Of a stretch of 64,000 nt of DNA, positions 812 through 46,215 are shown one piece after another (within the stretch, counting starts at the first letter, position 1; every line of letters begins with the position of its first letter). Origin of the DNA: Candidatus Daviesbacteria bacterium RIFCSPLOWO2_01_FULL_39_23 (lineage in GTDB: Bacteria; Patescibacteriota; Microgenomatia; Daviesbacterales; UBA10151); assembly GCA_001776935.1 (NCBI GenBank), contig MFDN01000001.1, forward strand, positions 19,619 to 83,618, read 5' to 3'. A program made the translations under genes and the position numbers. The notes under the pieces were generated by a model that saw only the letters and a program-made list of their open reading frames with translations, ran no database searches and had not been told where the DNA came from.

Positions 812-856
812 TAATTTATTATACAGAAAAATCTAATCGAAGTATAAATCATTTAT

Positions 857-958
857 GTCATCCTGAGACCCGATTAAATCGGGGCGAAGGATCTCTCAAC
901 TGGCTTGAGGAGAATCTGACATAAAGTCAGAGATTCTTCGCTAGTCGCTCAGAATGAC
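857..958. repeat. Complex ~100-bp inverted-repeat/multi-hairpin element in divergent intergenic region
   Basis: gtcatcctgag...cgaaggatctc (857-895) pairs with gagattcttcg...ctcagaatgac (930-958). Internal perfect hairpins cccgat-taa-atcggg (867-881) and ctgac-ataaa-gtcag (916-930). Confidence 0.6.
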
Positions 959-991
959 ATTGCGGTATAATAGAAATAACAGTCTTTTGAT

Positions 992-1793
992 GAATATTAC
1001 CCTTATAAAAAATCTTTTGGATATTAGCGGAAAAACAGCTATTGTAACAGGCGGAGCTTCGGGTATTGGTTTTGGGATAGCCTGCAGACTGGCAGAAGCC
1101 GGGGCAAATATAGTGATTGCAGATGTGCAGGCTGATGAAGCGCAAAAGGCAGCAGAAGATTTCTCAGCAAAAGGCTGGAAGGCAAAGAGTGTAATGGTTG
1201 ATGTATCAAATGAGGAAGATGTTAAAAACTTAATTGCTGAAACGGTTTCAACTTATGGGTCGGTTGATATTTTGGTTAACAATGCCGGGATTTATCCTGC
1301 TATCCCTATTTCGCAGATGTCTTTAAAAGATTTTGAAAAAGTGATTGATGTGAATTTAGATGGGGTATTTTTGTGCACAAAGTATGCCTCCGAGCAAATG
1401 AAAAAGCAAGGCAAGGGAGGCAAAATTATAAATGTTGCCTCAATTGATGCATTACATCCTTCTATGGTAGGGCTTTCTGCATATGATGCTTCAAAACACG
1501 GGGTTTGGGGATTTACTAAAAATGCGGCTTTAGAGTTGGCGCCTTTTAAAATTTGGGTTAATTCCATAGCCCCGGGAGGAATTGCCACGCCGGGGGTCGC
1601 TAAAATGCAATCCCAGGAAAATTCAGCTGGCGATGGAGGTAAAGCAATAGAAGAGTTTATGGCAAAAATCCCTATGGGCAGAATAGGGGAACCGGATGAT
1701 ATCGGAAAAGTAGCCTTATTTTTAGCCTCGGATATGTCCTCTTATATGACCGGGTCACAGATTGTAGTAGACGGCGGCGTACTTTTATCCTAA
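992..1793 (+). CDS. SDR-family oxidoreductase (3-oxoacyl-ACP reductase-like)
   Basis: TGGASGIG Rossmann motif, NNAG motif, catalytic region YxxxK-like (YDASKHGV). ORF track 954..1793; likely start MNITLIKNLL at 992. Confidence 0.85.
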
Positions 1794-1803
1794 CTTTTGT
1801 TAT

Positions 1804-1834
1804 TGACAACGGTTCCCTATTTAAGATATGATAT
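1804..1834 (+). promoter_or_regulatory. Sigma70-like promoter for csoR operon (TTGACA 1804-1809; -10 candidates ATATGA/TATGAT ~1827-1834)
   Basis: Perfect TTGACA, 17-19 bp spacer to a TATGAT-like hexamer, immediately upstream of the palindromic operator and csoR ATG. Confidence 0.45.
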
Positions 1835-1850
1835 CCCCCTAGGGGGGACT
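1831..1850. promoter_or_regulatory. CsoR operator-like GC-rich palindrome (core CCCCCTAGGGGG)
   Basis: Perfect 12-bp palindrome ccccctaggggg at ~1835-1846, flanked tccccctagggggga. Sits between the -10 region and csoR start codon, the only GC-rich dyad in an AT-rich intergenic region. Confidence 0.6.
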
Positions 1851-1858
1851 AGACAAAT

Positions 1859-2131
1859 ATGACTTACAGACCTAAAGATACTCAGGAACGTATTTTACAC
1901 AGACTTAAGATTGCCAAAGGACATTTGCAAAAAGTTATCCAAATGGTTGAATCCGGTCAATATTGCATAGACGTGATTCATCAGTCTCAGGCTATCCAGC
2001 GTGCTTTGCAGGAAGCAGATTCTGTGCTTTTGGAAAACCACCTAAAAACTTGTGTGGTGGATCATATAAAAAAAGGCGAAGCAGATTCGTCCATTCAGGA
2101 AATTATGAATGTTTTACAAAAAAGCAGATGA
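1859..2131 (+). CDS. csoR: CsoR/RcnR-family metal-sensing transcriptional repressor (copper-sensing CsoR-like)
   Basis: 90 aa. CIDVIHQSQAIQRAL...HLKTCV contains the Cys/His/Cys metal-ligand pattern of the CsoR (DUF156) family. First gene of an operon encoding CopA and CopZ. Confidence 0.8.
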   Translation: MTYRPKDTQERILHRLKIAKGHLQKVIQMVESGQYCIDVIHQSQAIQRALQEADSVLLENHLKTCVVDHIKKGEADSSIQEIMNVLQKSR

Positions 2132-2631
2132 ATAACAAAAAAATAATTATTGGTTTTATAATTTTTACCCTTTTAATGCTGGGGGGCGGGGTTTTTGTTT
2201 TAAGCAGTACGACTTCCGGCCCGGGTAAAATCACAGCTTCTCAAAATGCCAAAGCAGAAGTTTTGGAAAAAACTTTTGACTGGGGAAACATACCTATAAA
2301 CGGCGGCAATGCCACAAAAACTTTCATTATCAAAAATACAGGTTCTGAGATCTTGAAACTTACCGGAATTAAGACTTCCTGTACTTGCACAAAAGCGCAG
2401 GTTGAAATAGAGGGAAAAACCAGTCCCTATTTTAGCATGCATGCAACATCGGGGTGGGTCGGAGAAGTGGCGCCGGGTAAAGAGGCCCGGCTCTTGGTTA
2501 TTTTTGATCCGGCTTTTCATGGGCCAACAGGAGTCGGTTCTGTGGAAAGACTGATTTCTATTCAGACAAATGATTCTCAAAACCCTAATCTGGAATTTTC
2601 TTTAAAAGGAGTCGTGATTAAAGATCAATGA
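2128..2631 (+). CDS. DUF1573 domain protein (signal-anchored, conserved TSCTCT motif)
   Basis: MNNKKIIIGFIIFTLLMLGG signal/TM then FIIKNTGSEILKLTGIKTSCTCTKAQ, matching the DUF1573 consensus (FxFxNTG...SCGCT). ATGA overlap with csoR stop. The longer ORF-track start at 1963 overlaps csoR out of frame and is rejected. Confidence 0.6.
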   Translation: MNNKKIIIGFIIFTLLMLGGGVFVLSSTTSGPGKITASQNAKAEVLEKTFDWGNIPINGGNATKTFIIKNTGSEILKLTGIKTSCTCTKAQVEIEGKTSPYFSMHATSGWVGEVAPGKEARLLVIFDPAFHGPTGVGSVERLISIQTNDSQNPNLEFSLKGVVIKDQ

Positions 2632-3557
2632 AAAAAATTAAGAAAATACTGGCAAAAGCGGTTCCTTTATGGATGGTGATTTTAATTACTATAAATTCCA
2701 CCATGATTATGGGTATTGCACAGTATTATTTAATGAGAGCAGAGCTTCGCAGGAATTTAAGCGAGCTTGCAAAAACAACAAAGAGTCCGGAAGATTTAGT
2801 GACAATTCTAAAACAGGAAGTTCTGCCGCAGGATGGTTATACGACTTCTTTAAAATGGAAAGATTTGGGAAAACAATTGGTAGAATCAGGAGCCATTGAT
2901 AAGAAAAAATATGAAGAAATTTTTACTTCTACCTCAGATGGAGCGGACCATATGAAATATCTTAATGAAGCCTCAGAAGATAATATCAGAATAGATGAGA
3001 AAAATTCCCGCTTCATGGTTAACACTTTTTGGGCTTTGGGTTTGGTACAAAAAAGCAAAGTTTTAGATGAAGGGCCGATGAAAACCGGCGGCACGCCGAC
3101 AGAAAATTTTGCCTCAACAGGAGGGTGGACTTTAGGGGCAAAACCTGTAATGGAAATTTATTCATCCAGGGAATTACTGCCCCTGAATTCTTTTCAGCAG
3201 GATTTGGTGAAAAAGATTGCTGAGAATGTTTTCCGTCCCTGTTGCGGCAACTCCACAGCCTTTCCTGATTGTAACCACGGCATGGCTGCTTTGGGTTATA
3301 TAGAGTGGGCAATCTATAACGGTCTTCCTGAGGAGCAAATTTACAAAGACCTGTTAGCTTTTAATGTTTTCTGGTTTCCGCAAAATTATGTGGAAATGGC
3401 AGTGTACTTTGATAAAAACGGCACAAAATGGAAAAATGTTGACCCGAAACTGGCTTTAGGCAGCGAGTACTCGTCCGCTCAGGGAGCGCAGCGTATTAAA
3501 CAATCTGTTCAAAGCGTACCCGGTTTGCAGATTCAGGGAGGGGGCTGCGGGGTATGA
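2628..3557 (+). CDS. Hypothetical membrane-anchored protein with Cys cluster (CCGNSTAFPDCNHG)
   Basis: 309 aa, N-terminal TM helix, ATGA overlap with the upstream gene, ends GGGCGV. No recognisable family. Confidence 0.5.
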   Translation: MKKIKKILAKAVPLWMVILITINSTMIMGIAQYYLMRAELRRNLSELAKTTKSPEDLVTILKQEVLPQDGYTTSLKWKDLGKQLVESGAIDKKKYEEIFTSTSDGADHMKYLNEASEDNIRIDEKNSRFMVNTFWALGLVQKSKVLDEGPMKTGGTPTENFASTGGWTLGAKPVMEIYSSRELLPLNSFQQDLVKKIAENVFRPCCGNSTAFPDCNHGMAALGYIEWAIYNGLPEEQIYKDLLAFNVFWFPQNYVEMAVYFDKNGTKWKNVDPKLALGSEYSSAQGAQRIKQSVQSVPGLQIQGGGCGV

Positions 3558-3561
3558 AGAA

Positions 3562-3600
3562 AGTTCAAAGTTCAAAGTGTAAAGTGTAAAGTGTAAAGTT
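3562..3600. repeat. Tandem heptamer repeat (AGTTCAA x2, AGTGTAA x3, partial)
   Basis: agttcaa agttcaa agtgtaa agtgtaa agtgtaa agtt, lying between the stop of the 2628-3557 gene and the start of the 3618 gene. Confidence 0.8.
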
Positions 3601-3617
3601 ATGAGATATAAGGTTTT

Positions 3618-4454
3618 ATGGAAAATGTACTTTTTCAAACATCTCTTATAGCTGCGTTTGTGGCCGGGATGGTGGCCCTTTTTGCTCCCTGCTGTATTAC
3701 TTTTTTACTGCCTGCTTATTTAGGCAGTGTTTTTAAGGAAAAGGAAAAAGTAATTCTAATGACTTTGGTTTTTGGTGCAGGGATTTTTACGGTGCTTCTG
3801 CCTGCAGTTTTAGGGGTGGCTTTTATTTCCAAATTTTTATTCCGGTACCATGATTTAATTTATTTTATCGGCGGTTTTGTAATGCTTATTGTGGCTTTAA
3901 CTACTTTTTTAGGTTTAAAAATGCCTATGCCTAATTTACCCGGGGCTAACATCGGCAAGAGGACAGATGTGGTATCAATTTTTACGCTTGGGATGGTGTC
4001 AGGTGTTACCAGCGCCTGCTGTGCTCCGGTTTTGATTGGAATTATGACTTTAACATTCCTGTCCCCTACTTTTTTCGGGGCTTTATTGGTAGGCGGTATG
4101 TATGTTTTAGGAATGGTGATTCCCCTGCTTTTGATTGCTGTTTTTCTGGCTGGTAAAATGCCGAAATTTTCTGTTTTAAGAAAACCTATTTTTTCTCTGA
4201 ATTTATTAGGGAAGACCTATTCGGTTATTCTTAGTAATTTAATTGCCTCGGCAATATTTTTATTTACCGGACTTTTGATTTTGGGCTTAACAATTACCGG
4301 TAAACTTTCGGCAGAGAATATGGATGAGTTTACTAAGATTATCACTAGTGCCTTGAGCAGTGCCAACAATGCGTTTGGTAATAATATTTTATTAAACATT
4401 TTGTTTGTGGGTACACTGGGGCTATTTATTTATTGGATATCCAAAAAAGTGTAG
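3618..4454 (+). CDS. CcdA/DsbD-transmembrane-domain-like thiol:disulfide membrane protein with di-cysteine motifs
   Basis: FVAGMVALFAPCCITFLLPAYLGSV resembles the CcdA TM1 motif (AGxxSFxSPCxLPLxPxYL). A second motif GVTSACCAPVLIGIM resembles CcdA TM4 (PCxxP). Multiple TM helices. Confidence 0.5.
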   Translation: MENVLFQTSLIAAFVAGMVALFAPCCITFLLPAYLGSVFKEKEKVILMTLVFGAGIFTVLLPAVLGVAFISKFLFRYHDLIYFIGGFVMLIVALTTFLGLKMPMPNLPGANIGKRTDVVSIFTLGMVSGVTSACCAPVLIGIMTLTFLSPTFFGALLVGGMYVLGMVIPLLLIAVFLAGKMPKFSVLRKPIFSLNLLGKTYSVILSNLIASAIFLFTGLLILGLTITGKLSAENMDEFTKIITSALSSANNAFGNNILLNILFVGTLGLFIYWISKKV

Positions 4455-4482
4455 TATATATCCTGAGGGGGTGATAATCACT

Positions 4483-4611
4483 ATGATGGGTTGGGGAGGT
4501 TATGGCTACGGCATGATGAATTCAGGATTTGGCATACTTTTTTCGTTAGTCGTATTATTGGATCTGATTCTTTTAGGAGTTTGGCTTTGGAAGCAGATTC
4601 AGAAAAAATGA
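4483..4611 (+). CDS. Small Gly/Tyr-rich single-TM membrane protein (42 aa)
   Basis: MMGWGGYGYGMMNSGFGILFSLVVLLDLILLGVWLWKQIQKK. Strong SD gagggggtg 9 nt upstream of ATG. ORF track 4405..4611 trimmed to the SD-supported start. Confidence 0.45.
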   Translation: MMGWGGYGYGMMNSGFGILFSLVVLLDLILLGVWLWKQIQKK

Positions 4612-4633
4612 TTCTTGGAAAGGGGTGATAAAA

Positions 4634-4903
4634 ATGCTGAATGCGAAAGCTTTTGCTAACGCCGCATCGTTGGTGATGGCAGTATGGGTTGTGGGCTGCG
4701 CTTTGCTGGCATATGTAATGCCTGATTTACTTTTTTCTATCTCGCAGTCCTGGACTCATACTATAAATCTCGGGGCAGTCAGAGCGCCGTTTAATCCCGG
4801 TTTGGGATCGCTAATTCTTGGTTTTGTCAGTGCGGTGGGATTGACCTGGGTAACAACTTACGGGACAGTTGCCCTTTACAATAAATTTGCAAAGAAAGGT
4901 TAG
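4634..4903 (+). CDS. Small hypothetical membrane protein (89 aa)
   Basis: MLNAKAFANAASLVMAVWVVGCALLAYV..., two predicted TM helices. SD aaggggtg 7 nt upstream of ATG. Confidence 0.45.
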   Translation: MLNAKAFANAASLVMAVWVVGCALLAYVMPDLLFSISQSWTHTINLGAVRAPFNPGLGSLILGFVSAVGLTWVTTYGTVALYNKFAKKG

Positions 4904-6142: not shown

Positions 6143-8383
6143 ATGGCAGAAAATAAGAAAACATTCAAAATAAAAGGCATGCATTGCGCTTCATGCATAA
6201 GGGTAATCGAAAGCTCTATTAAAAAGATTCCCGGAATATCCGATGCTTCAGTTAGTTTAGTGACAGAAAAAGCAACAGTAGCGTTTGATCCCAAAAGGGT
6301 AAATGATGAACAAGTTATGTCTGCTGTTTCCAGGGTAGGTTATAAAGCCTTTTTGGAGGAGGAAGGGGAATCGGAAGAAAAAGAAAAAGAAGAAAAGCAA
6401 AAAGAACTTTCTGCCCTTAAAAGAAAAGCTTTTATCAGTTTGTTTTTGGCATTTTTAATTGTTTGGGGAAGTTTTCCTTACATTGACCAATTTGCTCCAT
6501 TTATCTTAAAAAACTTCTGGGTGCAACTTATTTTAGCTTTGCCTGTGCAGTTTTGGGCAGGACTCATGTTTTATAAAGCAACAATTCCCGCTCTGCGCCA
6601 CCGCACTGCCAATATGGATACTTTAATCACCATCGGAACAACTGCGGCTTTTGGGTATTCGGTAGTCGCTACAGTTTTTCCGCAGATTATTGAAAGCGCA
6701 GGCATTGAGCCGATGCCTTATTTTGATGTATCGGCAGTAATTATCGGTTTAATTTTGCTGGGCAGATATTTTGAAGCAAAAGCCAAAGCAGGTACCTCAG
6801 AGGCAATTAAAAAGTTAATCGGATTGCAGGCTAAAACTGCCAGGGTTTTAAAAAACGGTAAAGAGGAAGATATAGCAATTGATCAGGTTGTGATTGGGAA
6901 TATCATCCGGGTAAGACCAGGCGAGAAAATTCCGGTTGACGGAAAAGTAAAAGAAGGGCAATCTTCGGTAGATGAGTCAATGATTTCCGGAGAAAGTATT
7001 CCGGTGGAAAAAACAAAAGGAGACTTAGTTATCGGAGGGACGATAAATAAAACAGGAAGCTTTATTTATGAAGCAACCAAAGTGGGAAGCGATACTATGC
7101 TTGCGCAAATCATCAAGCTGGTTGCCGAAGCGCAAGCCAGCAAGGCGCCGATTCAAAGACTGGTTGACTTAATTTCTTCTTACTTTGTGCCGGTAGTTTT
7201 AATGCTTGCAATTTTTACCTTTACAGTATGGTATATCTTTGGGCCTCAGCCTGCATTTTTATTTGCCATGCTGAATTTGGTGGCGGTTTTGATTATTGCC
7301 TGTCCTTGTGCCATGGGACTTGCAACTCCAACAGCCATTATGGTGGGAGTGGGCATTGGGGCGGAACACGGGATTTTAATTAAAAACGCAGAAAGTCTGG
7401 AAATTGCCCATAAAATAAATACGGTGATTTTTGATAAAACCGGAACTTTAACAAACGGTAAACCAGTGGTAACAGACATAATTTCGACCTCGCAGGTCAA
7501 AGGCGCTGGACCTGCGAGGTCTGTGCTGCAGATTGCCTCATCAATAGAAAAAGGGTCAGAGCACTCCTTGGCTGAGGCTATTGTCCAGAAGGCAGACCAG
7601 GAGGGACTTGCCCTGAGCGCAGTCGAAGGGTTTAAGGCAGTACCGGGGCACGGAGTAGAGGGAATTATTAATAAAAAAAGGGTGATCTTTGGGAACAGGA
7701 AGTTGATGGATCGGGAAAAAATTATCTGGCGGAAGATGGAGGCAAATATTGAAAAGTTGGAATCAGAGGGTAAGACAGTTATGATGCTGGCAGTTGAAGG
7801 TGAACTTGCTGGATTGATAGCAGTTGCGGATACTTTAAAACAAACTTCCAAAAAAGCAATTGACACGCTTTCGAAGATGGGAATAGAGGCTGTGATGATT
7901 ACAGGTGATAATGAAAGGACTGCTAAAGCCATCGCAAAACAGGCAGGAATTAAAAGAGTTTTGGCAGAAGTGCTGCCTGATCAAAAAGAAGCTGAGGTAA
8001 AAAAAATTCAGGCAGAGGGTAAAGTGGTGGCTATGGTGGGGGACGGGATTAATGATGCGCCGGCCCTGGCAGCAGCCAATATAGGTATTGCTATGGGAAC
8101 CGGAACAGACGTGGCAATGGAGGCGGCGGGAATTACCCTGGTAAGTAAAGATTTAGCTTCTGTTGCCGAGGCAATTGAATTATCAAAAAAAACAATGAGA
8201 ACAATAAAGATGAATCTTGTCTGGGCTTTCGGGTATAATATAACCTTAATACCTGTGGCAATGGGAGCTCTTTATCCGGTCTTCCAGATATTGCTAAATC
8301 CCATTTTTGCCTCAGCGGCAATGGCTTTAAGTTCAATATCAGTGGTCAGCAATTCATTGCTTTTGAAAAGGACTAAACTCTAA
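6143..8383 (+). CDS. copA: Copper-translocating P1B-type ATPase
   Basis: N-terminal HMA domain GMHCASC, TM CPC motif ([13 protein letters not shown]), DKTGTLT phosphorylation motif, GDGINDAP hinge. 746 aa. Confidence 0.95.
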
Positions 8384-12807: not shown

Positions 12808-13095
12808 ATGTTTGGATTCAGCCGGAAAAGATTTTTAGTTACTTTGGGGTTAAGTGTGTTGATTTGGATAGTTAGCAACTTTATACAACTACTAAACTCC
12901 AACCATTGGCCTGCAGGTTTCTCTCTATTAGGTGGTTCGTGTACAGTCACTGGTTATCCATTTGCTTTTTGTTTGGCAGGTTACGAGAAAGTTAAAATAT
13001 TACTAATTTATTTGGTGAATATTGCATTTTGGTTTTGGGTTTTACATTTTTTGTGGAAATGGTTTAACAAAGGGAAGTCTTCTTTTGAAAAATAG
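12808..13095 (+). CDS. Hypothetical small membrane protein (95 aa)
   Basis: Two TM-like segments. 3' end overlaps the convergent lipase gene by ~54 bp. Confidence 0.3.
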   Translation: MFGFSRKRFLVTLGLSVLIWIVSNFIQLLNSNHWPAGFSLLGGSCTVTGYPFAFCLAGYEKVKILLIYLVNIAFWFWVLHFLWKWFNKGKSSFEK

Positions 13096-16044
13096 CTTTT
13101 TCCCCTGAAAAATTGTGGTAATTAGTCCTAAGAAAGCAAGGGTTATTATTCCTCCGGAAACCATTAATAATCCTCCTAAAATTTGACTTGCAGGATTTAT
13201 TGTTTTTTTCTTAGTACTTAATTTTTTCTGTTCTCCTAAAATATTAGTGACATTAATTTGATCAGAAATACGAGCAGGGTTTTCAAAGTTGATTCCCAGC
13301 ACTCTTTTATTCACCTCGAAGGTGGGCTCTGACTCCTTCGAGGTGCTTGCTGTCAAGACGGATGTCGGATTATTGCTTTGGTTTGTTTCCTGAGTGGTGC
13401 CGGAGGAAGAATTATTATTGCCTGAACTGGTGCCTGTAGAGGCAGGTGTTGGCGAGGGGGTCGGTGTCGGGCTGGCTGGTACAGCTATTTCGATAATTAT
13501 GGTCTGAGGGATTTCCTCATTACCAGATTTATCAACGGCTTTTATTTGAATTGTAGTTTTGCCGGGAGCAGAAATAATAAAGGGCTCTGAATAAATTTTT
13601 ACTGTTTGGCCGTTATCTAAGCTGTATTCGATCCTCAGAATACCTGATTCTGTATCATTGCCTGTTAAAGTTATAGTTACAGGATTTGTATAGATGCCGG
13701 ATGAATCCTTGGTGCCGGAAATTTGAATGGAGGTTGTGGGTGAAGATTGATCAAAAGCATTTCCTCCTTGAATCTCGCTGGTAGGGATTATTATTTCGCT
13801 CTCCGGTTGGGCGGAGTCAGGGTAAATAGTTAGCGGTGGGGAAATATCGGACGAAGGATCAAGATCAAACTCAATTCCTCCTTTTTCATCAATAGCAATA
13901 TCTTTATAAATAGCAGTTTTTGAAATCCTGTCTTCCCTATAAGTTCGCTTTTTGATATTGGTGGTTTTTGAAGAAACAGCTTTCTTTTTGCGGGTTGCTT
14001 TGACTTTTACCTTAGCGGCTTTCTTTTTGACAAAAGCATGTTTAGTGTTGCCGGAAGTGGTACATATAACATCAGGAATATTTTCTTCTATCTCTCCTTT
14101 TTCGTTTAATCCGCAATGACGGTTTTGATCATCGTAAAGGTCTAATTCCCCGTCATCCAAAGAAATTTGTTCTCCTTCTAAAATAAACTTTTGGTCCTTA
14201 ACTTCTACAGGTAAATCGTTATCATCGTTTAAGATTGCTTTAACGGTTTGCATAGCGGTTCCATTTGTTGATACTAAATTTCCATGATTCTGTTCTACGT
14301 AATAAATTTTTGTAGCACCCGAGATGTCTAAATTATCGTTTTTTAGTGAAGCACTATATAATGGTACTGTGCCATCACCATTTATGAAGATCTCATCCCT
14401 TTTAGGGAATAAATTTATTGGCCATGTAATCCACCATGTTTCATTGATTTGACCCAAAGTCGGTTGCGCTGTGCCGACTATTCCATAAACTTTTGTGCCA
14501 TTTGTTTGGTTTAATATAGAATCCAAACTATTATGAAATTGTTCGCCAAAATTAAAGACAGACATATTGTAATTTAGATTTGAGAGAAGATTTTTGGTTT
14601 GATCAAAATTAAGAGTTCCAGTTAAGTTGTTGTTATCAATATCTTGATCATCTTTTAATGGGTATGGAAGATTCTTATCTAAATTAGTATAAAAATTATA
14701 ATATTGATTTGATGGCAAAAGTTGGAATAGTGCAGGATTATTCCGTGAGACATCTTTTACCTCACTAGCAGGTACGCCTATTGGAAAAATACCGAAAACA
14801 TTCTTTTGCAGAGCAGAACCATACATAAGCGTTTTTGTTGCACTGGTAGCTCCTAAATGGGGAACTCCCAGTTCAATTAGTTTGTTAACTTTAGAAGCTT
14901 TTTGAGCATCAGAGATATAATATCTGGCAACTAAACCGCCCATGGAATGAACAACAAGGTTTACTTGTGGCTGGCCGGATTTCTGTCTGGCATTTTCAAT
15001 TAAAGCATCTAAATCATCTTTAGTAGTTCTTACATCTTTTCTCCAGTCATAAGGAAAAACAAAGAAATTTGTTCCTTTGTCATACCCCATTTCTGTAAAA
15101 AATGGATCAATATCTGAATATCCAAATGAAGTTAATTCCCCTGTTAAGACAAGAGCTGCTTCTGAAGTTACCCCGTCTGCTTTTAACCTTAAAATATCAA
15201 AATAATCATCATTTCCTAACTTTACCGCTTCGTCTTGATTTACCCAAATCTTTTCTTCACCGCCGTATGCATGAGAATATGTTCCACCGTGTCCGTCATC
15301 CGAAGACCAAAAAATATCCTGCGAAGCTTTCATTTCAGACCCTCCGATTCCGGGAATAAAAATTACCGGCAGTCTGGGCGGATGCGAAGGAGCCAGCGCG
15401 GAAACCTTTATATTATCAAACTTCATATATGCGCCCCCGAATATTCCTGTCCAATATGATAATGTTATAGTCCCTTTTTTAATATTGGTGCCTGTGTCAG
15501 TGAAATCAAAGATAGGAGTGTTGTCTATCCAGGCTTTAATATTTTCATTGGAGACTTCGATTATGAGGTGATACCATTTGTTATTTGCAAGAGAAAAAGG
15601 CTTGATCTCTTTTAATAAAGTCTGCCCGTTTCCGTCAATCTTCCATAATATAATTTGTGGTGTGTTATGTATGCCTTTCCCGTACCTTAAATTGATTTCA
15701 TAAGAACCATTTTCTCCATATCTAAAACCTACACCCTGGTCGATTCCCAAAAAACCATTGATATCCAATTCTATGCGGTAATTATCCCATTCAGAATTGC
15801 CTGTGTTAATTCTTCCGCCCAGCGCTTTTCCTGAACTTGATCCGGCTAAGTTACCGTTATTTACCTGCCAATTACCTGATTCTATTGTCCATCCATTCAA
15901 ATTTCCGTCATCGAAATTATCAAAAAGAAGTATATCTTCTTCGGTTGCCATAACCCGGGTGCTTAAAGCCATAAAAAACCACACCGCAAGAATAAGCCCT
16001 ATTATTAGGCGCAGTGGCAATATATTATTCACCTTTGCATCCAA
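13042..16044 (-). CDS. Large secreted multidomain lipase/esterase: N-terminal ConA-like/DUF1080 lectin domain, alpha/beta-hydrolase lipase domain (GHSMGG-type), Pro/Thr-rich linker, C-terminal TM anchor
   Basis: Signal peptide. ILLFDNFDDGNLNGWTIESGNWQVNNGNLAG (DUF1080/LamG-like). VNLVVHSMGGLVARYY nucleophile elbow as in Lipase_2/PGAP1-like. PASPTPTPSPTPAS linker. C-terminal LGGLLMVSGGIITLAFLGLITTIF. Confidence 0.65.
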   Translation of the reverse strand: MDAKVNNILPLRLIIGLILAVWFFMALSTRVMATEEDILLFDNFDDGNLNGWTIESGNWQVNNGNLAGSSSGKALGGRINTGNSEWDNYRIELDINGFLGIDQGVGFRYGENGSYEINLRYGKGIHNTPQIILWKIDGNGQTLLKEIKPFSLANNKWYHLIIEVSNENIKAWIDNTPIFDFTDTGTNIKKGTITLSYWTGIFGGAYMKFDNIKVSALAPSHPPRLPVIFIPGIGGSEMKASQDIFWSSDDGHGGTYSHAYGGEEKIWVNQDEAVKLGNDDYFDILRLKADGVTSEAALVLTGELTSFGYSDIDPFFTEMGYDKGTNFFVFPYDWRKDVRTTKDDLDALIENARQKSGQPQVNLVVHSMGGLVARYYISDAQKASKVNKLIELGVPHLGATSATKTLMYGSALQKNVFGIFPIGVPASEVKDVSRNNPALFQLLPSNQYYNFYTNLDKNLPYPLKDDQDIDNNNLTGTLNFDQTKNLLSNLNYNMSVFNFGEQFHNSLDSILNQTNGTKVYGIVGTAQPTLGQINETWWITWPINLFPKRDEIFINGDGTVPLYSASLKNDNLDISGATKIYYVEQNHGNLVSTNGTAMQTVKAILNDDNDLPVEVKDQKFILEGEQISLDDGELDLYDDQNRHCGLNEKGEIEENIPDVICTTSGNTKHAFVKKKAAKVKVKATRKKKAVSSKTTNIKKRTYREDRISKTAIYKDIAIDEKGGIEFDLDPSSDISPPLTIYPDSAQPESEIIIPTSEIQGGNAFDQSSPTTSIQISGTKDSSGIYTNPVTITLTGNDTESGILRIEYSLDNGQTVKIYSEPFIISAPGKTTIQIKAVDKSGNEEIPQTIIIEIAVPASPTPTPSPTPASTGTSSGNNNSSSGTTQETNQSNNPTSVLTASTSKESEPTFEVNKRVLGINFENPARISDQINVTNILGEQKKLSTKKKTINPASQILGGLLMVSGGIITLAFLGLITTIFQGKKLFFKRRLPFVKPFPQKM
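13312..13345. repeat. 34-bp hairpin element copy A (cacctcgaagg-tgggctctgact-ccttcgaggtg), inside the 3' coding region of the lipase gene
   Basis: Perfect 11-bp stem with 12-nt loop. 33/34 identical to the copy at 16110-16143. Confidence 0.8.
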
Positions 16045-16109
16045 ATTGTTGATCGTGAAAAATCGGAGCGCAATATGGCTTTAAGGTGATTTAAGATAAC
16101 GAACTGACT

Positions 16110-16143
16110 CACCTCGAAGGTAGGCTCTGACTCCTTCGAGGTG
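16110..16143. repeat. 34-bp hairpin element copy B, in the divergent lipase/cyclophilin intergenic region
   Basis: cacctcgaaggtaggctctgactccttcgaggtg. Differs from copy A by one loop nucleotide. Confidence 0.8.
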
Positions 16144-16180
16144 TTGCAAAATAGACTTTGGGGTGGTATACATTTGAGGG

Positions 16181-16882
16181 ATGTTAACGAACCAGAAAGT
16201 TTTGTGGATGTTGCTTATACTTTTCATTATTGGAGCAGGAGTTTATCTTGCTGTCTCAAAATTTAAAAATGATGTCGGGGATTTATCAGCATCTCCTTCC
16301 CCTTCGCCTTCGGGGCTGGATTTTGTGTTAACTAAATCTCCTGAACCAACAGCGGTGTCGCAGGGCACCCAAACCCAGCAAGTCCAATCTTCTGAATTGC
16401 CATTAGCCCGCAATAAAAAACTTTCTAAATTCCCGGGAGTTTTAAAACCGGAGGATTTGCAAAATAAAAAAGCCGTTATTCAGACTGCCAAAGGGATAAT
16501 CCAGCTTAAAATTTATCCCGAAGCTTCTATGGCTGCCTCCAATTTTATGATTTTATCTGCAAATGGTTTTTACGACGGATTAAAATTTCACCGGGTGGAA
16601 GATTGGGTGGTGCAGGGCGGGGATCCTTTGGGAAACGGCACAGGCGGGCCAGGGTATCAATTTCCTGATGAGCCGGTTACGCGTTCCTATGTTAAGGGTA
16701 TAGTGGCTATGGCAAATGCAGGCCCTAATACCAACGGCAGCCAATTTTTTATCTTGAAAAAAGATACGCCTTTGCCTCCAAGCTATACGATTTTGGGGCA
16801 AATTATTTCCGGACAAGACGCAGTAGATAAACTTTCTATTGGTGATGTAATGCAGAAGGTGGTTATCCAAAATCTCCAATAG
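16181..16882 (+). CDS. Cyclophilin-type peptidyl-prolyl cis-trans isomerase with N-terminal TM anchor
   Basis: [29 protein letters not shown]...[17 protein letters not shown] (cyclophilin signature). Confidence 0.85.
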
Positions 16883-16883
16883 C

Positions 16884-16958
16884 TTTCAGCTATCAGTCTT
16901 CAGTCGTCAGATAATTGCAATTTAAATCTGAAAGCTGAGAGCTGAAGACTGATGACTA
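16884..16958. terminator. Imperfect long inverted repeat after the PPIase gene (arms atcagtcttcag / ctgaagactgat)
   Basis: 12-bp perfect arms at ~16892-16903 and ~16942-16953 with additional flanking complementarity. No clear U-tract. Confidence 0.4.
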
Positions 16959-17462: not shown

Positions 17463-17672
17463 TCAGGGTATAGCAAATAGGGTTTAGGGTATAGTTTAAT
17501 CAAAAAACTTATGAAAAATTCAAGAAATAAAACAATAACCAAATCCACTTTGCAGCTAGTTTCTGTGGCCCGGGGTAAGATTCAAAAAAAGACTAATGGT
17601 GAACATAAAACCAATGGATTGGATATAAACGGACGCACCTTTGGGACGCGTTTTGATCTCCGCTATAAAAAA

Positions 17673-20150
17673 ATGCCCCAAATGCCGGAAGGTCTGCCTC
17701 AGCCTACATTTTCCGAAAGCTCAAACAAAATTCTAAAGGAAAGGTATTTACTTAAGGGCGGGAATTTAGAAGTTATAGAAACTGTGGCAGAGCGTTTTTG
17801 GCATATTGCCTATGATATTGCCTCTGCTGATTTTGACTTTTCGCAGAGTTCGAAGCATGTTTTTGATTTATCCTGTAAGTTTTACACCATGATGGTTAAG
17901 CAGGAATTTCTACCTAATTCCCCGACAATTATGAATGCGGGCAAAAATAACGGTTTGCAGTATTCTGCCTGTTTTGTGCTGCCTGTTGGGGATTCTTTGC
18001 CGGAGATATTTGATTCCATAAAATACGCAGCGCTTATTCATCAAACAGGCGGAGGCACAGGCTTTGCTTTTTCCCGGCTTCGTCCTACAGGCTCAATTGT
18101 TAATACCACAGGCGGTGTGGCATCCGGACCTGTTTCTTTTCTTAGGGTATTTAATGCGGCTACAGAATCCATAAAACAGGGCGGCACAAGACGCGGCGCC
18201 AACATGGGGATTTTAAGGGTGGATCATCCTGATATTTTGGAATTTATCCGCTGCAAAGCAGAGCTTGATGATTTAAATAAACCTATTTTTGCAGGCATTG
18301 CCCCGCTTTTACCTGATGACGCGTCACGGGATTATGCTAAACAACTGCTTTTAGACAAGCAAATTGCTAATTTTAATATCTCGGTGGCTGCAACTGATAA
18401 ATTTATGGAGGCGGTGGAAAAAGGTGAAGATTATGAACTTATTCATCCTCACAGCGGAGAAGCGGTCGGCACTCTTAATGCCAAAGAAGTTTTTGATGAA
18501 ATAATTGAAAGAGCCTGGAAAACAGGAGATCCGGGCCTTATATTTATTGACCGCATAAACAACTCCCCTGCCAATCCGGTTCCCTCCTTGGAAACTATTG
18601 AATCAACCAATCCTTGCGGAGAGCAGCCTCTTGCGCCGTGGGATGCATGTAATTTAGGATCCATTAATTTGGGTAAATTTGTGCTTGAGGAGGGGTCAGA
18701 TGTGAATTGGGAAAAATTAAAAGATGTAACACGCTTGGCAGTCCACTTTTTGGATAATGTGGTGCAGAATAATCCTTTTACTTTAAAACAAATCTATGAT
18801 GAAGTGCACAAAAACCGCAGGATAGGCTTGGGAGTGATGGGTTTTGCCGATATGCTTTTTAAATTAAAAATTCCTTACGGAAGCGATGAAGCTTTAAAAA
18901 TGGCTGAAAAGATAATGAAGTTTATAAATGAAGAAGGACACAAAGAATCTGAGGAGTTGGCAATAGAACGCGGTCCTTTCCCCAATTTCTTAGATTCAAT
19001 CTATGCTGATAAAAATTCTCCTTCTTTTGCCAATAGGCCGGCCTCGTATGCTTATGAAGGCGGCAGGCCGATCAGGAATTCCACTATTACCACCATTGCT
19101 CCCACAGGCACAATTTCCATAATCGGTGATTGTTCCTCAGGGATTGAACCGGTTTTTGCCCTAGCTTATATGCACAAGGCTAAAGCTTCCGGTGATCAGT
19201 ACAGAATTTTGACTATTGCTAATCAAACATTTGTGGATATTGCCAAAAGAGAAGGTTTTTACAGCGACGATTTGGCGACGAAAGTTTTAGAGCATGGTTC
19301 TGTAGCCGGCGTTGACGGTGTGCCCCAGGAATGGCAAAAGGTTTTTGTGACAGCTCCTGAGATTGATCCTGTTTGGCATGTAAAGATGCAGGCAGCTTTT
19401 CAAAGCTATACAGATAATGGTGTTTCCAAAACTATCAACTTGCCAAACAGCGCAACCCGTGATGATGTCAGGCTTGCATATAAAATGGCTTATGAAACAG
19501 GCTGCAACGGAATTACCATTTACCGGGATGGCTCAAAATCAGTGCAGGTTTTAAATGTTTCCTCTTCTTTGGGTAAAGGCAAAGAAGAGACAGCTCCGGT
19601 AGCTGAGCGGCCGATGATTTTACATGGCAGGACTTATAAAGTTTCCACTCCTGTGGGGGAGGCTTTTATTACTGTAAACCGGGATATACAGGGGCAGCCT
19701 TTTGAAGTATTTGTGACTGTCGGCCGGGCAGGGATGCACACCATGGCAGATGCAGAAGCTATGGGAAGACTGGTGTCTTTGTCTCTGCGTTTGGCAAGAG
19801 GAACAAAAGAAACTGATCCGAAGGCTGTGGCTGCAAAAATTGTCGGCCAGCTTAAAGGAATCGGGGGAGCCTCCTCTGTGGGGTTTGGGAAAAACAGGGT
19901 GATGAGTCTGGCAGATGCAATTGCTAAAGTTTTGGCAGAGGATTTGGCAATGGAGACTCAAAGTCAGGAAGTTGAAGCAATACCTCTTGATTTAACCATC
20001 AACGGCAAAGGTGATATTGATCTACAACCCACAACCCACAACCCAAAACCCAAAACCAATGCTGATCTTTGTCCTGAATGCGGCTCTGCTTCTTTTGTCA
20101 TGGAAGAAGGCTGTAAGAAATGTCATAGCTGTGGGTATAGTATGTGCTAA
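17673..20150 (+). CDS. nrdJ: Adenosylcobalamin-dependent (class II) ribonucleotide reductase NrdJ
   Basis: KILKERYLLK N-terminus, NPCGEQPL active-site Cys motif, C-terminal CPECG...CKKCHSCG zinc ribbon. ORF track begins at 17511 (54 extra aa); start at MPQMPEG (17673) preferred by family alignment, uncertain. Confidence 0.9.
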   Translation: MPQMPEGLPQPTFSESSNKILKERYLLKGGNLEVIETVAERFWHIAYDIASADFDFSQSSKHVFDLSCKFYTMMVKQEFLPNSPTIMNAGKNNGLQYSACFVLPVGDSLPEIFDSIKYAALIHQTGGGTGFAFSRLRPTGSIVNTTGGVASGPVSFLRVFNAATESIKQGGTRRGANMGILRVDHPDILEFIRCKAELDDLNKPIFAGIAPLLPDDASRDYAKQLLLDKQIANFNISVAATDKFMEAVEKGEDYELIHPHSGEAVGTLNAKEVFDEIIERAWKTGDPGLIFIDRINNSPANPVPSLETIESTNPCGEQPLAPWDACNLGSINLGKFVLEEGSDVNWEKLKDVTRLAVHFLDNVVQNNPFTLKQIYDEVHKNRRIGLGVMGFADMLFKLKIPYGSDEALKMAEKIMKFINEEGHKESEELAIERGPFPNFLDSIYADKNSPSFANRPASYAYEGGRPIRNSTITTIAPTGTISIIGDCSSGIEPVFALAYMHKAKASGDQYRILTIANQTFVDIAKREGFYSDDLATKVLEHGSVAGVDGVPQEWQKVFVTAPEIDPVWHVKMQAAFQSYTDNGVSKTINLPNSATRDDVRLAYKMAYETGCNGITIYRDGSKSVQVLNVSSSLGKGKEETAPVAERPMILHGRTYKVSTPVGEAFITVNRDIQGQPFEVFVTVGRAGMHTMADAEAMGRLVSLSLRLARGTKETDPKAVAAKIVGQLKGIGGASSVGFGKNRVMSLADAIAKVLAEDLAMETQSQEVEAIPLDLTINGKGDIDLQPTTHNPKPKTNADLCPECGSASFVMEEGCKKCHSCGYSMC

Positions 20151-43164: not shown

Positions 43165-44700
43165 ATGAATATTTTTTCACAAAAGCTTAAAATATTTTTT
43201 CTTATACTGATTATTTTTAATACCTTACTTTCCGCTTATTGGTTAATTAATGGAGATATTCATTATGATGTGGATGTTTCCCGTGACTTTTTGGTAATGG
43301 AGGATATTATTGAGAATAATCATTTTACCCTACTGGGTCCGCGTTCAGGAGCCATTCCGGGGATTTTCCATGGTCCACTTTGGTTTTATATTAACTTACC
43401 TGCATTTTTTCTGGGTAAAGGCGATCCTTTGATTGTTGGTTGGTTTTGGTTTTGCTTATCCGTATTTTTCCTGCTGCTTGTATTTTGGGTTACAAAAAAA
43501 CTGTTTGATACAGAGGTGGCATTTCTATCGACCCTTCTTCTTTCAGCTAATTCCATTATAAATCCCTCAATAGGCCTGAAGAATTTTTATAATCCCTATG
43601 GAGCGGTATTCTTAACGCCATTATTCTTTTGGTTATTCCATCGCTATATTAATAGTTTAAAAGCTAAATACTTAATTTTTAGTTTATTTACATTAGGTTT
43701 TATTATTCAATTTCAAATGGCTTTCGGAATACCGATACTTATTGCGCTTACAGTTTTTTTAGGATATTTGTTATTTATCAAGAGGAAACTCATCCATTTT
43801 CTTTCATATTTAATTTTGTTAATTCCTATTTCAACCTTTATATTATTTGATATAAAGCATGACTGGCTGCAGTATAAGGCATTGATTCGATTCCTTAGCC
43901 AAAATAGTAGCTCGGGTAATATTTTGAATATTTTTCAAGACCGTATAAGGGTATTATTTTTTGACTTTTTTGATTTTTTATCTCCGGGGAAAAATATTCT
44001 TACTATTTTTCAGGCAATTTTTTTCCTTGTTGTGTTAATTATTGGTATTAAAAGCAATAATAATCCGAAGAGAAAAGTTTACATTTTATTTTCTATAATT
44101 TTTTTTGGTTTTTGGGTAGTCTCTTTATTTTATCAAGGCGGAACCGGTAATTATTTTTGGCCGCTTTTGCCGCTTGCTGTCATTGTTTTCTGCTCATTTT
44201 ATCGCGTCTTAAAAGCGAGAATTTTTCTTGGGGTTTTCTGCCTTCTTTACCTGGTTAATGTGTATGCGGGAATCTCGGCAATCATGGATTTTGAAACCGA
44301 TGTCGATAGAAGAGGTCCTCATAGCTGGGCTTTTAATTTATATGTTGCTAAAAAAATCTATGCGGATGCAAAAGTTGATTTTGGATATTTTAACTTTTCG
44401 CCGGACAGGTATGCTTATCAACAAAGATATGCCATGAGCTATGCCAAAAAATATTCCCCAAATCTTAACTCCTTCTCTTTTGTTAAAAAGCCGCTTACTT
44501 ATTTGGTAGAAGTAGATCCTCCGAAGGATAGACCGGATTTAAATGGTACCAGCTGGAGAATTAGCGATGTTGGTATTGACCGATTGCCTGATCAGATTTT
44601 TCGCTTTGACTTTATTCAGGTTGAGAAATACTTCCTAAATAATGAAGAGATAAAAATAGAACCTAATGCATACTTGTTAGACAAGGCATTTTTAAGATAA
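43165..44700 (+). CDS. PMT/ArnT-like GT-C membrane protein, paralog A1
   Basis: HYDVDVSRDFLVMEDII...LLGPRSGAIPGIFHGPLWFYINLPAFF...KKLF... Same architecture as A2 (46216..47742). Confidence 0.55.
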   Translation: MNIFSQKLKIFFLILIIFNTLLSAYWLINGDIHYDVDVSRDFLVMEDIIENNHFTLLGPRSGAIPGIFHGPLWFYINLPAFFLGKGDPLIVGWFWFCLSVFFLLLVFWVTKKLFDTEVAFLSTLLLSANSIINPSIGLKNFYNPYGAVFLTPLFFWLFHRYINSLKAKYLIFSLFTLGFIIQFQMAFGIPILIALTVFLGYLLFIKRKLIHFLSYLILLIPISTFILFDIKHDWLQYKALIRFLSQNSSSGNILNIFQDRIRVLFFDFFDFLSPGKNILTIFQAIFFLVVLIIGIKSNNNPKRKVYILFSIIFFGFWVVSLFYQGGTGNYFWPLLPLAVIVFCSFYRVLKARIFLGVFCLLYLVNVYAGISAIMDFETDVDRRGPHSWAFNLYVAKKIYADAKVDFGYFNFSPDRYAYQQRYAMSYAKKYSPNLNSFSFVKKPLTYLVEVDPPKDRPDLNGTSWRISDVGIDRLPDQIFRFDFIQVEKYFLNNEEIKIEPNAYLLDKAFLR

Positions 44701-46199: not shown

Positions 46200-46215
46200 A
46201 AATAATATTCGAAGT

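Follow-up and report, generated by a model that had tools for sequence, protein, structure and literature searches.

Two near-identical hairpins at the lipase locus

The 64,000-nt stretch of DNA analysed here (the window) contains two near-identical hairpins that bracket most of one lipase gene, one of them inside its coding sequence. This raises the question of whether the hairpins form a module built around the gene or belong to something more general.

The lipase ORF (13042..16044, minus strand; 1000 aa, with the start called at 16032 in other assemblies) is of the LCAT/alpha-beta-hydrolase type. Its product has a 3-keto-disaccharide-hydrolase-like domain at the N terminus, a low-complexity linker and a hydrophobic tail at the C terminus, and is predicted to be an LCAT-type lipase/esterase, secreted or anchored. 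The divergent neighbor on the plus strand encodes a cyclophilin-type peptidyl-prolyl isomerase (16181..16882). Copy 1 of the hairpin (13312..13345, plus strand), a REPIN-like doublet of 34 nt, lies antisense to the lipase ORF and reads CACCTCGAAGG-TGGGCTCTGACT-CCTTCGAGGTG (arm-loop-arm). Copy 2 (16110..16143, plus strand) is intergenic, located in the lipase/cyclophilin spacer, and reads CACCTCGAAGG-TAGGCTCTGACT-CCTTCGAGGTG, with the arms of copy 1. Both are perfect 34-nt hairpins with an 11-bp stem and a 12-nt loop and differ by a single loop base (G vs. A), so the description and placement given in the first-pass annotation hold in full. The repeat common to both reaches one base further 5′ (T), to 35 nt. 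With ≤3 mismatches allowed, these two were the only matches in the window, and none was obtained in 100 dinucleotide shuffles. The 11-bp stem was predicted on both strands, with energies of approximately −20 to −25 kcal/mol in 74-nt contexts (z = −2.4 to −3.0).

Copy 1 is translated as TSKESEPTFEV approximately 90 aa from the lipase C terminus, in the low-complexity linker upstream of the hydrophobic tail, and many relatives have family variants at the same linker site of the orthologous lipase. Copy 2 lies 66 nt upstream of the lipase start called in other assemblies (78 nt from 16044) and 38 nt upstream of the cyclophilin ATG. By our own reading of the sequence, it directly adjoins a weak −35/−10-like pair (TTGCAA-17-TATACA), a putative cyclophilin promoter.

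The genes nrdR and ribonucleotide reductase (RNR) are close neighbors. An NrdR operator was nevertheless rejected, since copies of the hairpin are intragenic elsewhere; its sequence is presumably also unlike NrdR boxes. A diversity-generating retroelement was rejected as well, because the repeat is only 35 nt long and its lone difference, T/C on the coding strand, is not adenine-specific. ARAGORN detected no tRNA at the hairpins and Rfam gave no match at gathering or E ≤ 1 thresholds, on which grounds a CRISPR repeat, a tRNA fragment and a ribozyme were discarded.

Conservation of the locus among assemblies and related species

The first-pass annotation had suggested a recombination or inversion module bracketing the lipase. 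Two near-identical 34-nt sites around most of one gene, each with inverted arms flanking an asymmetric centre, could indeed serve site-specific inversion or excision, and their size resembles that of the 34-bp lox/FRT sites. However, the two hairpins are in direct orientation at a distance of 2798 nt, and since one is intragenic, the lipase would be truncated by excision. Their order and the 2798-nt spacing are identical in the three independent assemblies that contain both, and copy 2 is unchanged in seven more. The window copies were kept in 10/10 assemblies and 12/12 cluster members, among which we saw no polymorphism and no inversion or excision of the ~2.8-kb segment. In contrast, copy 2 is absent from the orthologous spacer of two related species (L130 and L132), with flanks and gene order conserved, and in the orthologous spacer of locus L131 a single 13-nt unit is found where copy 2 sits. 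Tyrosine-recombinase core sites (lox/FRT/dif) have a crossover region of 6–8 bp, shorter than the 12-nt centre present here (or 8 nt, counting 13 nt for each arm). Essential genes are among the hosts of other copies of the family described below, so that recombination between copies would be lethal, and the window holds no homologue of the one XerC/D-like integrase (from L218) used as a query. Paired sites of such a module are therefore extremely improbable. The lipase is neither cargo nor part of a cassette. On the reading that we favor below, copy 2 inserted specifically in this lineage, immediately upstream of the putative promoter region of cyclophilin.

A dispersed family of paired palindromic units

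Copies unique to this locus, an outcome that the first-pass annotation had regarded as telling against its readings, are not what we found, as further copies are widespread. We scanned one genome per species with the pattern ACCTCGAAGG-N6-18-CCTTCGAGGT and obtained >119 stretches; 29 of the matches carry the window loop or a 13–15-nt variant of it. The family consensus is CACCT-NNN-AGG-TGGGCYYTGACT-CCT-N'N'N'-AGGTG, and the family is spread over MAGs of Daviesbacteria and related groundwater bacteria (Levybacteria, Gottesmanbacteria and other Microgenomates). An outer C/G pair was present in 29/31 copies, though the search pattern did not demand it. A covariance model of the family (R1) recovered 58 distinct copies, several per MAG, in about 330 kb of related loci, a sample biased by the choice of loci that hold at least one copy. 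Copies 1 and 2 scored 61.6 and 56.5 bits against this model and are ordinary copies of the dispersed palindromic family. A scan of viral contigs gave a single match with an unrelated loop, and a phage origin was rejected on this basis.

Each arm of the hairpin is itself an interrupted palindrome, CACCYNNNRGGTG, a 13-nt unit of the form CACCY-NNN-RGGTG. The 34-nt hairpin thus consists of two such units, inverted around an 8–12-nt spacer, and reads [CACCT-CGA-AGGTG]-GGCTCTGA-[CtCCT-TCG-AGGTG], with central triplets that are mutually reverse-complementary. As a hairpin, the unit alone has a very short stem of 5–8 bp and a 3-nt loop; single units also occur (L131, at 5918, and L216). In its Daviesbacteria hosts, the element measures 34–37 nt.

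The stem varies between copies in a coordinated manner. Central triplets CGA, CGG, CCG, TCC, GGA, GGG, TCA, and TCG were found, always compensated in the opposite arm. In a set of 19 distinct arm pairs, pairing holds in 97.6% of cells and 6/11 pairs change on both sides, a level reached by 0/500 shuffles; these statistics lean towards pairing, since the R1 search prefers paired stems. In the flanks of 31 copies we detected neither a conserved 5′ tetranucleotide tag (GTAG or CGTC) nor a target-site duplication or conserved target, and the latter two were not seen at three empty sites either.

The window also contains a third, diverged family member (7486..7521; 25.8 bits, E about 1e-3), reading GACCTCGCAGGTC-AAAGGCGCTG-GACCTGCGAGGTC. 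Its perfect 13-bp stem includes a compensated change from A-T to C-G, and it is the longest perfect short-loop hairpin of the window. It lies in the ORF of a heavy-metal P-type ATPase (6143..8383, plus strand; HMA, E1-E2_ATPase and Hydrolase domains are found in the identical L001 gene), where it encodes 12 residues in frame, shortly downstream of the DKTGT motif. The window thus holds three family copies in 64 kb, two of them intragenic.

Placement of the copies within genes

Of the 58 distinct copies, 55 are located inside ORFs of at least 150 aa that belong to housekeeping genes; the hosts include AspRS, MurB, PurL, the CCA-adding enzyme, HMG-CoA reductase, PfkB kinase, and a thiolase. Both orientations occur, in a ratio of about 50:50 relative to transcription, and the asymmetric loop is conserved whichever is used. 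Five of the six frames of the canonical sequence are open, and canonical copies use all five (TSKVGFDSFEV, TSKESKPTFEV, HLEGVKAHLRG, PRRWALTPSR, and PRRSQSPPSR) and never the frame with the TGA stop. In-frame copies are, judging by their coding context, read through as about 5–12 extra amino acids, giving short peptides rich in Ser/Thr/Gly/Pro/Lys/Glu. Copies are often positioned 55–135 aa from the N terminus or about 70–80 aa from the C terminus.

These data bear on two further functions that might be ascribed to the hairpins, transcription termination or attenuation and a selected peptide motif, which we consider very improbable. The first-pass annotation had included paired attenuators among its suggestions. 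A stable, GC-rich stem in an AT-rich genome, with one copy in a 5′ region, is consistent with such a role, yet the hairpins have no T-run, no terminator-like site and no Rfam match, their orientation is evenly split, and nearly all copies are intragenic. A selected peptide or sorting motif was rejected since the hosts include cytoplasmic enzymes and the five frames give unrelated peptides; with one copy non-coding, it is the DNA that is conserved and not the peptide.

Presence, absence and alleles at orthologous sites

Comparison of orthologues showed that the element is present in some and missing in others. A PfkB kinase gene carries it in L016, has none in L108 and has a TCC/GGA variant in L093, while the thiolase gene has it in L048 and none in L069. 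At the MurB site, 120 homologues were divided into 53 short or empty alleles, 13 single-unit alleles and 54 with longer inserts; the last comprise 42 in which a two-unit doublet can be recognised, spread over two reading frames, and 12 others. Some of the short or empty alleles retain hairpin remnants. Relative to the element-free allele, the doublet adds only 15 nt and the singlet 0 nt, so that net length changes at this site do not equal the length of the element. The same protein sites are repeatedly taken by different variants, which simple random insertion does not predict.

These alleles speak for a local, transposase-free origin, in which replication errors that generate palindromes (template switching at a short interrupted palindrome) would turn a single unit into a doublet, flip loops and copy one arm onto the other. 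Single-unit, two-unit, flipped-loop, and expanded or nested-loop alleles do coexist at one site, the length changes are unlike those of a clean insertion and no target duplication was found. However, the asymmetric 12-nt loop TGGGCYYTGACT is identical at dozens of unrelated loci in different candidate phyla, which calls for a common origin and not for local generation, and a Y1 transposase gene has the unit on its flanks as well (see below). We therefore regard this origin as improbable.

A structural element of DNA or mRNA that benefits the cell and is selected by the host at defined gene sites is a somewhat better, still unlikely, explanation. It could be, for example, the site of a dimeric double-strand-specific protein (RNase III-type), a translational pause or a cruciform-binding site. 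At orthologous sites the arms stay complementary despite 2–4 differences per arm between species; intrastrand template switching, though, can preserve complementarity of this kind without selection. The sites in MurB, lipase, PurL, AspRS, and HMG-CoA reductase are occupied across many lineages, and the stem is pseudo-symmetric (CACCTNNNAGGTG), hence a dimeric binder would meet the same view in either orientation. Against such selection, many orthologues have no hairpin and give no sign of compensation, the host genes are functionally unrelated, the asymmetric loop is conserved in both of the equally frequent orientations, no Rfam family matches and the repeats are associated with a transposase gene.

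A Y1 transposase gene flanked by the same unit

The locus L131, which shares synteny with the window, codes for a Y1_Tnp protein of 214 aa whose gene is flanked by TTCCACCCTTGGGGTGGAA. In 80 metagenome Y1 loci encoding relatives of this protein (214–227 aa), CACCY-NNN-RGGTG hairpins adjoin the gene, on one side or both, in at least 25 cases, and 60 units were counted in 328 kb of such loci vs. 0.4 expected. In L157, L161, and L218–L221 the Y1 gene is flanked by CACCTTCGAGGTG and CACCTCGAAGGTGgg, which are the exact arms of the window hairpins, and in L170, L177, and L199 by full doublets with 12-nt spacers. Doublets of 34 nt within 3 kb of a Y1 gene were limited to three loci, and because of this scarcity the link to the transposase rests on the 13-nt unit together with co-occurrence in the same assembly. 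Such co-occurrence was found in CAZPZA01, where the transposase (L220) and in-frame doublets (L082) share one assembly, in CAZKCV01, where L214 and L042 share one contig, in JACPKL01 (L131 together with L048 and L065), and in Gr01-1014_7 (P0231 together with L038 and L115). Instead of a GTAG or CGTC tag, units close to the transposase have (A)GGTGCCAA(C/G)NTA(A/G)TC upstream, and the central triplet of the flanking unit may differ from that of dispersed copies in the same genome.

The protein matched Pfam Y1_Tnp with 31–35 bits (gathering score 23). Its sole NCBIfam match was the REP-associated tyrosine transposase (REP_Tyr_transpos, E = 5e-12), with 43–47 bits, below the curated cut-off of 80, which makes it a distant RAYT relative and not an equivalog. 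The HUH motif (PNHFH), SRYIHLNP and the Tyr motif are invariant among these Y1 proteins; a search for solved structures gave no sequence match. No tnpB was present in the gene tables of the Y1 loci L131, L213, L214, and L218–L221, and no homologue of the Y1 transposase was found within the 64-kb window. The neighborhood of the Y1 gene recurs beside a XerC/D-like gene and DivIC, which gives only a hint of a fixed locus.

Taken with the distribution of the copies, these results lead us to favor, with a probability of about 0.7, a REPIN/RAYT-like non-autonomous palindromic element whose in-frame survival inside genes is unusual. Of the readings offered by the first-pass annotation, that of a small mobile palindromic element tolerated in frame gains support, as the copies are dispersed, in frame in unrelated genes and present or absent among orthologues. 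The mobilising enzyme would be the dedicated RAYT-type HUH/Y1 transposase that Daviesbacteria and related Microgenomates encode; acting on single-stranded DNA, it would recognise the folded hairpin and copy or move it in trans. Copies would insert anywhere, and most would land in genes because these genomes are, by an estimate that we assume, about 90% coding. As the sequence is open in five of six frames, in-frame copies would survive in linkers and surface turns and be translated, and selection would purge the remaining, out-of-frame insertions.

The hairpins could also be something other than passive selfish inserts, in one of two ways, both doubtful in our view: a domesticated Y1 enzyme of Microgenomates might keep rewriting a small number of permissive turns and linkers of essential proteins, or the hairpin might have a cellular role in DNA or mRNA. 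Under rewriting, empty, single-unit, doublet, flipped, and expanded alleles would be swapped in frame with the arms kept paired. It would then amount to a transposase-driven engine of small in-frame variation at protein surfaces, in organisms with almost no intergenic DNA.

Comparison with known palindromic elements

The REPIN/RAYT-like element that we favor has its closest known counterpart in the REP/REPIN-RAYT systems (2013, PMC3733652; Quentin et al., 2018, PMC6006769). Both have a short, GC-rich, dispersed palindromic unit of 20–40 nt with sequence sub-families, inverted doublets that form a hairpin around a short spacer, singlets that coexist with doublets, and a unit-flanked Y1/HUH gene, whose closest curated model here is the REP-associated tyrosine transposase. 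Whereas classical REPs and REPINs are extragenic, with a minority in genes (PMC3733652), the copies of the Daviesbacteria type are largely intragenic and translated. They also lack the GTAG/CGTC tag, the stem of their unit is very short, their transposase is longer and scores under the curated RAYT cut-off, and their hosts are Patescibacteria (CPR). Full-text word searches, which were non-exhaustive, returned no published description of the element or of RAYTs in CPR/Patescibacteria.

REP/REPIN-RAYT systems are regarded as intergenic residents, mainly of Proteobacteria. Our results place an architecture of this kind (short unit, hairpin doublets and unit-flanked Y1 gene) in the Candidate Phyla Radiation, where, in tiny genomes with little intergenic space, the repeat appears to persist through being translatable. 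If confirmed, this would explain many short odd inserts of CPR housekeeping proteins (such as TSKVGFDSFEV, HLEGVKAHLRG, and PRRWALTPSR), which would be relevant to annotation, alignment and structure prediction. The element would also provide a compact sequence marker of these lineages and a natural experiment on which protein sites tolerate insertions of 5–12 residues, and would show how a palindrome can persist in sequence that must also encode protein.

In-frame palindromes have a precedent in the Rickettsia palindromic elements (RPE), which, according to PMC3733652, have inserted in frame into ORFs whose protein products are likely still functional. The likeness extends to small, reduced genomes with little intergenic space and to repeats in intact genes. 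RPE are about 100–150 bp long and add 30–50 aa, considerably more than the element of Daviesbacteria, and no sequence resemblance was obvious on informal inspection. We know of no dedicated transposase for RPE, in contrast to the unit-flanked Y1 gene found here. Yeast mitochondrial GC clusters and the very small dispersed repeats of cyanobacteria are likewise tiny, GC-rich, palindromic mobile sequences of AT-rich genomes and are occasionally intragenic; their hosts and sequences are unrelated to those studied here, and to our knowledge they have no link to a Y1 transposase. Finally, IS200/IS605 elements and their minimal derivatives (palindrome-associated transposable elements) share the Y1 HUH family, sub-terminal hairpins read in single-stranded DNA and a lack of target-site duplication with the system described here. 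They differ in having distinct left and right ends, while our Y1 gene has the same small unit on both sides and, in the loci with gene tables named above, no tnpB; moreover, any IS end pair greatly exceeds the dispersed copies in size.

The hairpins at the lipase locus

The first-pass annotation had described a pair of hairpins bracketing the lipase gene, and we recovered both: copy 1 at 13312-13345, with the arm-loop-arm sequence CACCTCGAAGG-TGGGCTCTGACT-CCTTCGAGGTG, and copy 2 at 16110-16143, which indeed differs in a single loop base (TAGG vs. TGGG in copy 1). The repeat is 35 nt long and in direct orientation, with the copies 2798 nt apart. A search tolerating up to 3 mismatches matched the hairpin pattern at two places in the window, against none in 100 dinucleotide shuffles; the 11-bp stem is the dominant predicted fold on both strands. 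The lipase ORF (13042..16044, minus strand) encodes 1000 aa with LCAT and alpha/beta-hydrolase domains and an N-terminal 3-keto-disaccharide-hydrolase-like domain. As previously proposed, copy 1 lies inside this coding sequence near its C-terminal end, where it encodes TSKESEPTFEV in a low-complexity linker approximately 90 residues from the C terminus. Copy 2 occupies the spacer that separates the lipase start from the cyclophilin start (16181). Directly 3′ of it (16144-16180) we noticed TTGCAA-17 nt-TATACA, followed 8 nt further by the cyclophilin ATG, and TTGCCA-17-TATATA occupies the equivalent position in the related locus L130. By our own reading, uncalled by a consensus scan, TTGCAA-17-TATACA could represent the cyclophilin promoter, with an mRNA that would be almost leaderless. 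Past the cyclophilin stop, ahead of the nrdR start, lies a perfect 12-bp inverted repeat (ATCAGTCTTCAG/CTGAAGACTGAT, 38-nt loop, 16892-16953), whose sequence bears no relation to that of the family of copies 1 and 2.

Identical cyclophilin and lipase proteins were found in many aquifer assemblies labelled Candidatus Daviesbacteria. Both hairpins are present with unchanged spacing on 3 contigs and copy 2 is unaltered on 7 shorter ones, while TSKESEPTFEV is kept by every member of the 90% lipase cluster that reaches the linker (3 shorter partial members stop before it). No inversion, excision or polymorphism of the window copies was seen in the two-copy contigs, the copy-2 contigs or this cluster. 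The suggestion of a recombination or inversion module was rejected, as the repeats are direct, no variant arrangement was observed and copy 2 is missing in relatives with unchanged gene order; the occurrence of other copies in essential genes also speaks against it. No homologue of one XerC/D-like integrase, used as a query, was found in the window. Nor did paired terminators or attenuators find support, there being no T-run and no terminator-like site. Both window copies are ordinary members of a wider family, and the lipase gene is not a cassette.

A dispersed family of compensated hairpins

A one-genome-per-species scan for ACCTCGAAGG-N6-18-CCTTCGAGGT returned more than 119 stretches. Among the matches listed, 29 carry the window loop TGGGCYYTGACT in either orientation or a 13-15-nt variant (TGGCCGAA(T)GGACT, TGACCGGAACGGGCT), and these originate from Daviesbacteria, Levybacteria, Gottesmanbacteria, other Microgenomates and several MAGs with placeholder labels. 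The outer C-G pair, not demanded by the search, is present in 29 of the 31 copies compared among the matches listed, and no conserved flanks were found around these copies.

We then ran a covariance model, built on the scan-derived copies, on the window and related loci. This wider search did yield further copies, 58 distinct ones in all in the related loci. The model also matched a third copy in the window (7486-7521, GACCTCGCAGGTC-AAAGGCGCTG-GACCTGCGAGGTC), absent from the first-pass annotation, with a 13-bp perfect stem and a 10-nt loop; it lies in frame in a heavy-metal P-type ATPase gene, shortly past the DKTGT motif. Copies 1 and 2 and this third copy are the top three perfect short-loop hairpins of the window. 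The family consensus is CACCT-NNN-AGG-loop-CCT-N′N′N′-AGGTG, in which the central triplet varies (CGA, CGG, CCG, TCC, GGA, GGG, TCA, TCG) with compensation in the opposite arm. Across 19 distinct arm pairs, 97.6% of cells are paired and 6 of 11 pairs changed on both sides, values reached by none of 500 shuffles, although searching with the model is in itself biased towards paired stems. Covariation extends to loop positions 3 and 10 (G.A, A.G, U-A), and some copies show a loop expansion of 20-40 nt. Each arm forms an interrupted palindrome together with the two bases that follow it (CACCTNNNAGGTG); the 34-nt hairpin therefore consists of two 13-nt units (CACCY-NNN-RGGTG) in inverted orientation. 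A known RNA family was ruled out (no Rfam match), as was retroelement-driven variation, the repeat being only 35 nt. A CRISPR repeat and a phage origin were discarded; a scan of viral contigs gave a single match, with an unrelated loop.

Copies within genes and their allelic forms

Of 58 copies, 55 lie within ORFs of at least 150 aa, and their orientation relative to the host gene is near even. The hosts include AspRS, MurB, PurL, the CCA-adding enzyme, HMG-CoA reductase, a PfkB-type kinase and a thiolase; the element also lies in the lipase, in giant surface proteins and in two adjacent genes, one of them NadD-like. Canonical copies make use of five reading frames (TSKVGFDSFEV, TSKESKPTFEV, HLEGVKAHLRG, PRRWALTPSR, PRRSQSPPSR), and the sixth, which has a TGA, is never used. 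This pattern indicates that the DNA rather than the peptide is conserved, ruling out a selected peptide motif, and that the surviving copies are those leaving the host frame open.

Comparison of orthologues revealed both occupied and empty sites. The PfkB-type kinase gene has a perfect copy in locus L016, a TCC/GGA-stem variant in L093 and none in L108 (a 13-residue gap); thiolase has the element in L048 and lacks it in L069. At the copy 2 site no hairpin is present in L130 or L132 despite well-conserved flanks, L130 being the closest relative found (lipase 67% identical, same gene order as the window), and in L131 the place is taken by one 13-nt unit, CACCTCAGAGGTG. Among 120 lipase homologues, chosen without bias, many show element-derived peptides at the copy 1 linker position and many others show none. 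Arm covariation is visible there even at the protein level (TSK..FEV, TSG..PEV, TPG..PGV, TPK..FGV, TSE..SEV); at the DNA level, the arms are paired yet differ in the lipase genes of L130, L131 (two copies) and L132, and at the L038 site the arms match the consensus and the 15-nt loop is flipped. AspRS genes of two distinct types, with only 31% identity, contain the element in structurally equivalent positions, which can only be independent insertion. Thus, of the possibilities raised in the first-pass annotation, a small mobile palindromic element tolerated in frame is the one upheld: the family is dispersed, in frame, and present or absent among orthologues.

At the MurB beta-turn, 120 homologues comprise 53 short or empty forms, 13 with a single unit, 42 with recognisable doublets, read in either of two frames, and 12 with other long inserts, nested ones among them. 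The seemingly empty L215 allele (IASQGLALQV) has a small palindrome, CAAGGCCTGGCCTTG, and the L216 allele of the same length (ISHLGGVIKV) a 19-nt hairpin, TCACACCTCGGAGGTGTGA, which differs from a hairpin flanking an HUH/Y1 transposase (Y1) gene in L136 solely by a flipped 3-nt loop (CGG vs. CCG). Relative to the element-free allele, the doublet allele adds only 15 nt and the 19-nt singlet allele none, and no target duplication was found at element sites; this suggests that the element overwrites sequence at the site instead of merely being added to it. These same two observations would fit local generation of palindromes, which we consider very unlikely. The same codon-level sites are occupied repeatedly by different variants, and the arms remain paired at orthologous sites. 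Together with overwriting, this leaves room for in-situ turnover of the element (loop flips, enzyme-driven replacement, palindrome self-correction) or for a hairpin with a host function, to which site reuse and retained pairing lend some weight; we regard a host function as unlikely.

Association with a Y1 transposase gene

In L131, which comes from a related Daviesbacteria MAG and is syntenic with the window, a 214-aa Y1_Tnp protein is encoded beside the ribonucleotide reductase gene, with TTCCACCCTTGGGGTGGAA on both flanks. That class II reductase (855-4661) has 1268 aa with an intein carrying a LAGLIDADG domain; its window orthologue (17511-20150) has 879 aa and no intein. A metagenome scan with the L131 Y1 protein gave 592 relatives, for which 80 loci were kept. 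CACCY-NNN-RGGTG occurs 60 times in these 328 kb vs. 0.4 expected; the usual distance to the Y1 gene is approximately 55 nt on its upstream side and 10-60 nt on its downstream side. In six loci (L157, L161, L218-L221) the gene lies between CACCTTCGAGGTG and CACCTCGAAGGTGgg, which are identical to the window arms and in inverted orientation, and in L170, L177 and L199 it is flanked by full doublets with 12-nt spacers. Gene-proximal units have a longer motif in common, (A)GGTGCCAA(C/G)NTA(A/G)TC, and in the L053 doublet this motif makes up the loop. Four assemblies contain the Y1 gene as well as in-frame doublets: CAZPZA01, CAZKCV01 (on one contig), JACPKL01 and Gr01-1014_7.

The Y1 protein scores above the Pfam Y1_Tnp threshold, and its sole NCBIfam match is the REP-associated tyrosine transposase, under the curated cut-off. 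The motifs PNHFH (HUH) and SRYIHLNP are invariant, and the family is very large, as 7922 of the scored candidates reach E<=1e-10; no Y1 homologue lies within the 64-kb window. The gene repeatedly adjoins genes for a XerC/D-like tyrosine recombinase and a DivIC-like protein (L213, L218-L220), and the recurrent neighbourhood suggests a fixed chromosomal locus, not a hopping insertion sequence.

Hairpins of the form (A/G)GACCTCGAAGGT-loop-ACCTTCGAGGTC were found among the matches listed in Bacteroidota, Ignavibacteria and Chloroflexota (L011, L026, L066, L073, L081, L091, L103, L120, L123 and others). In L120 (Flavisolibacter), hairpins with a ACCTCGAAGGT stem at 16-44 and 712-740 surround a Y1_Tnp homologue (35-646). 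Many of the listed non-CPR matches are thus probably REP-type elements, and REP/RAYT systems of distant phyla have the CCTCGAAGG stem in common with the Daviesbacteria element.

Comparison with REPIN/RAYT systems

Judged by sequence organization, the architecture is of the REPIN/RAYT type (PMC3116915, PMC3733652, PMC6006769): the palindromic unit is short, it occurs singly and as inverted doublets that form hairpins, and it flanks the Y1 gene. We infer catalysis by the Y1 enzyme, a single-stranded substrate and a selective filter. In this mechanism, which we favour and consider likely, a RAYT-like enzyme would act in trans on the hairpin folded in single-stranded DNA, the 34-nt hairpin and CACCTCGAAGGTG being candidate substrates, and gene-breaking copies would then be removed by selection. 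In contrast to classical REPINs, nearly all copies here are intragenic and translated; the unit is very short and lacks the GTAG or CGTC tag of classical REPs, and the Y1 enzyme is only distantly related to curated RAYTs. As in-frame palindromic repeats are known in Rickettsia and a minority of REPs lie within genes (PMC3733652), the element is a variant of an already known type.

Elsewhere in the window, a 72-nt direct repeat (81% identical; 43240-43311 and 46291-46362) lies in ORFs 43165-44700 and 46135-47742, which are probably paralogous genes.
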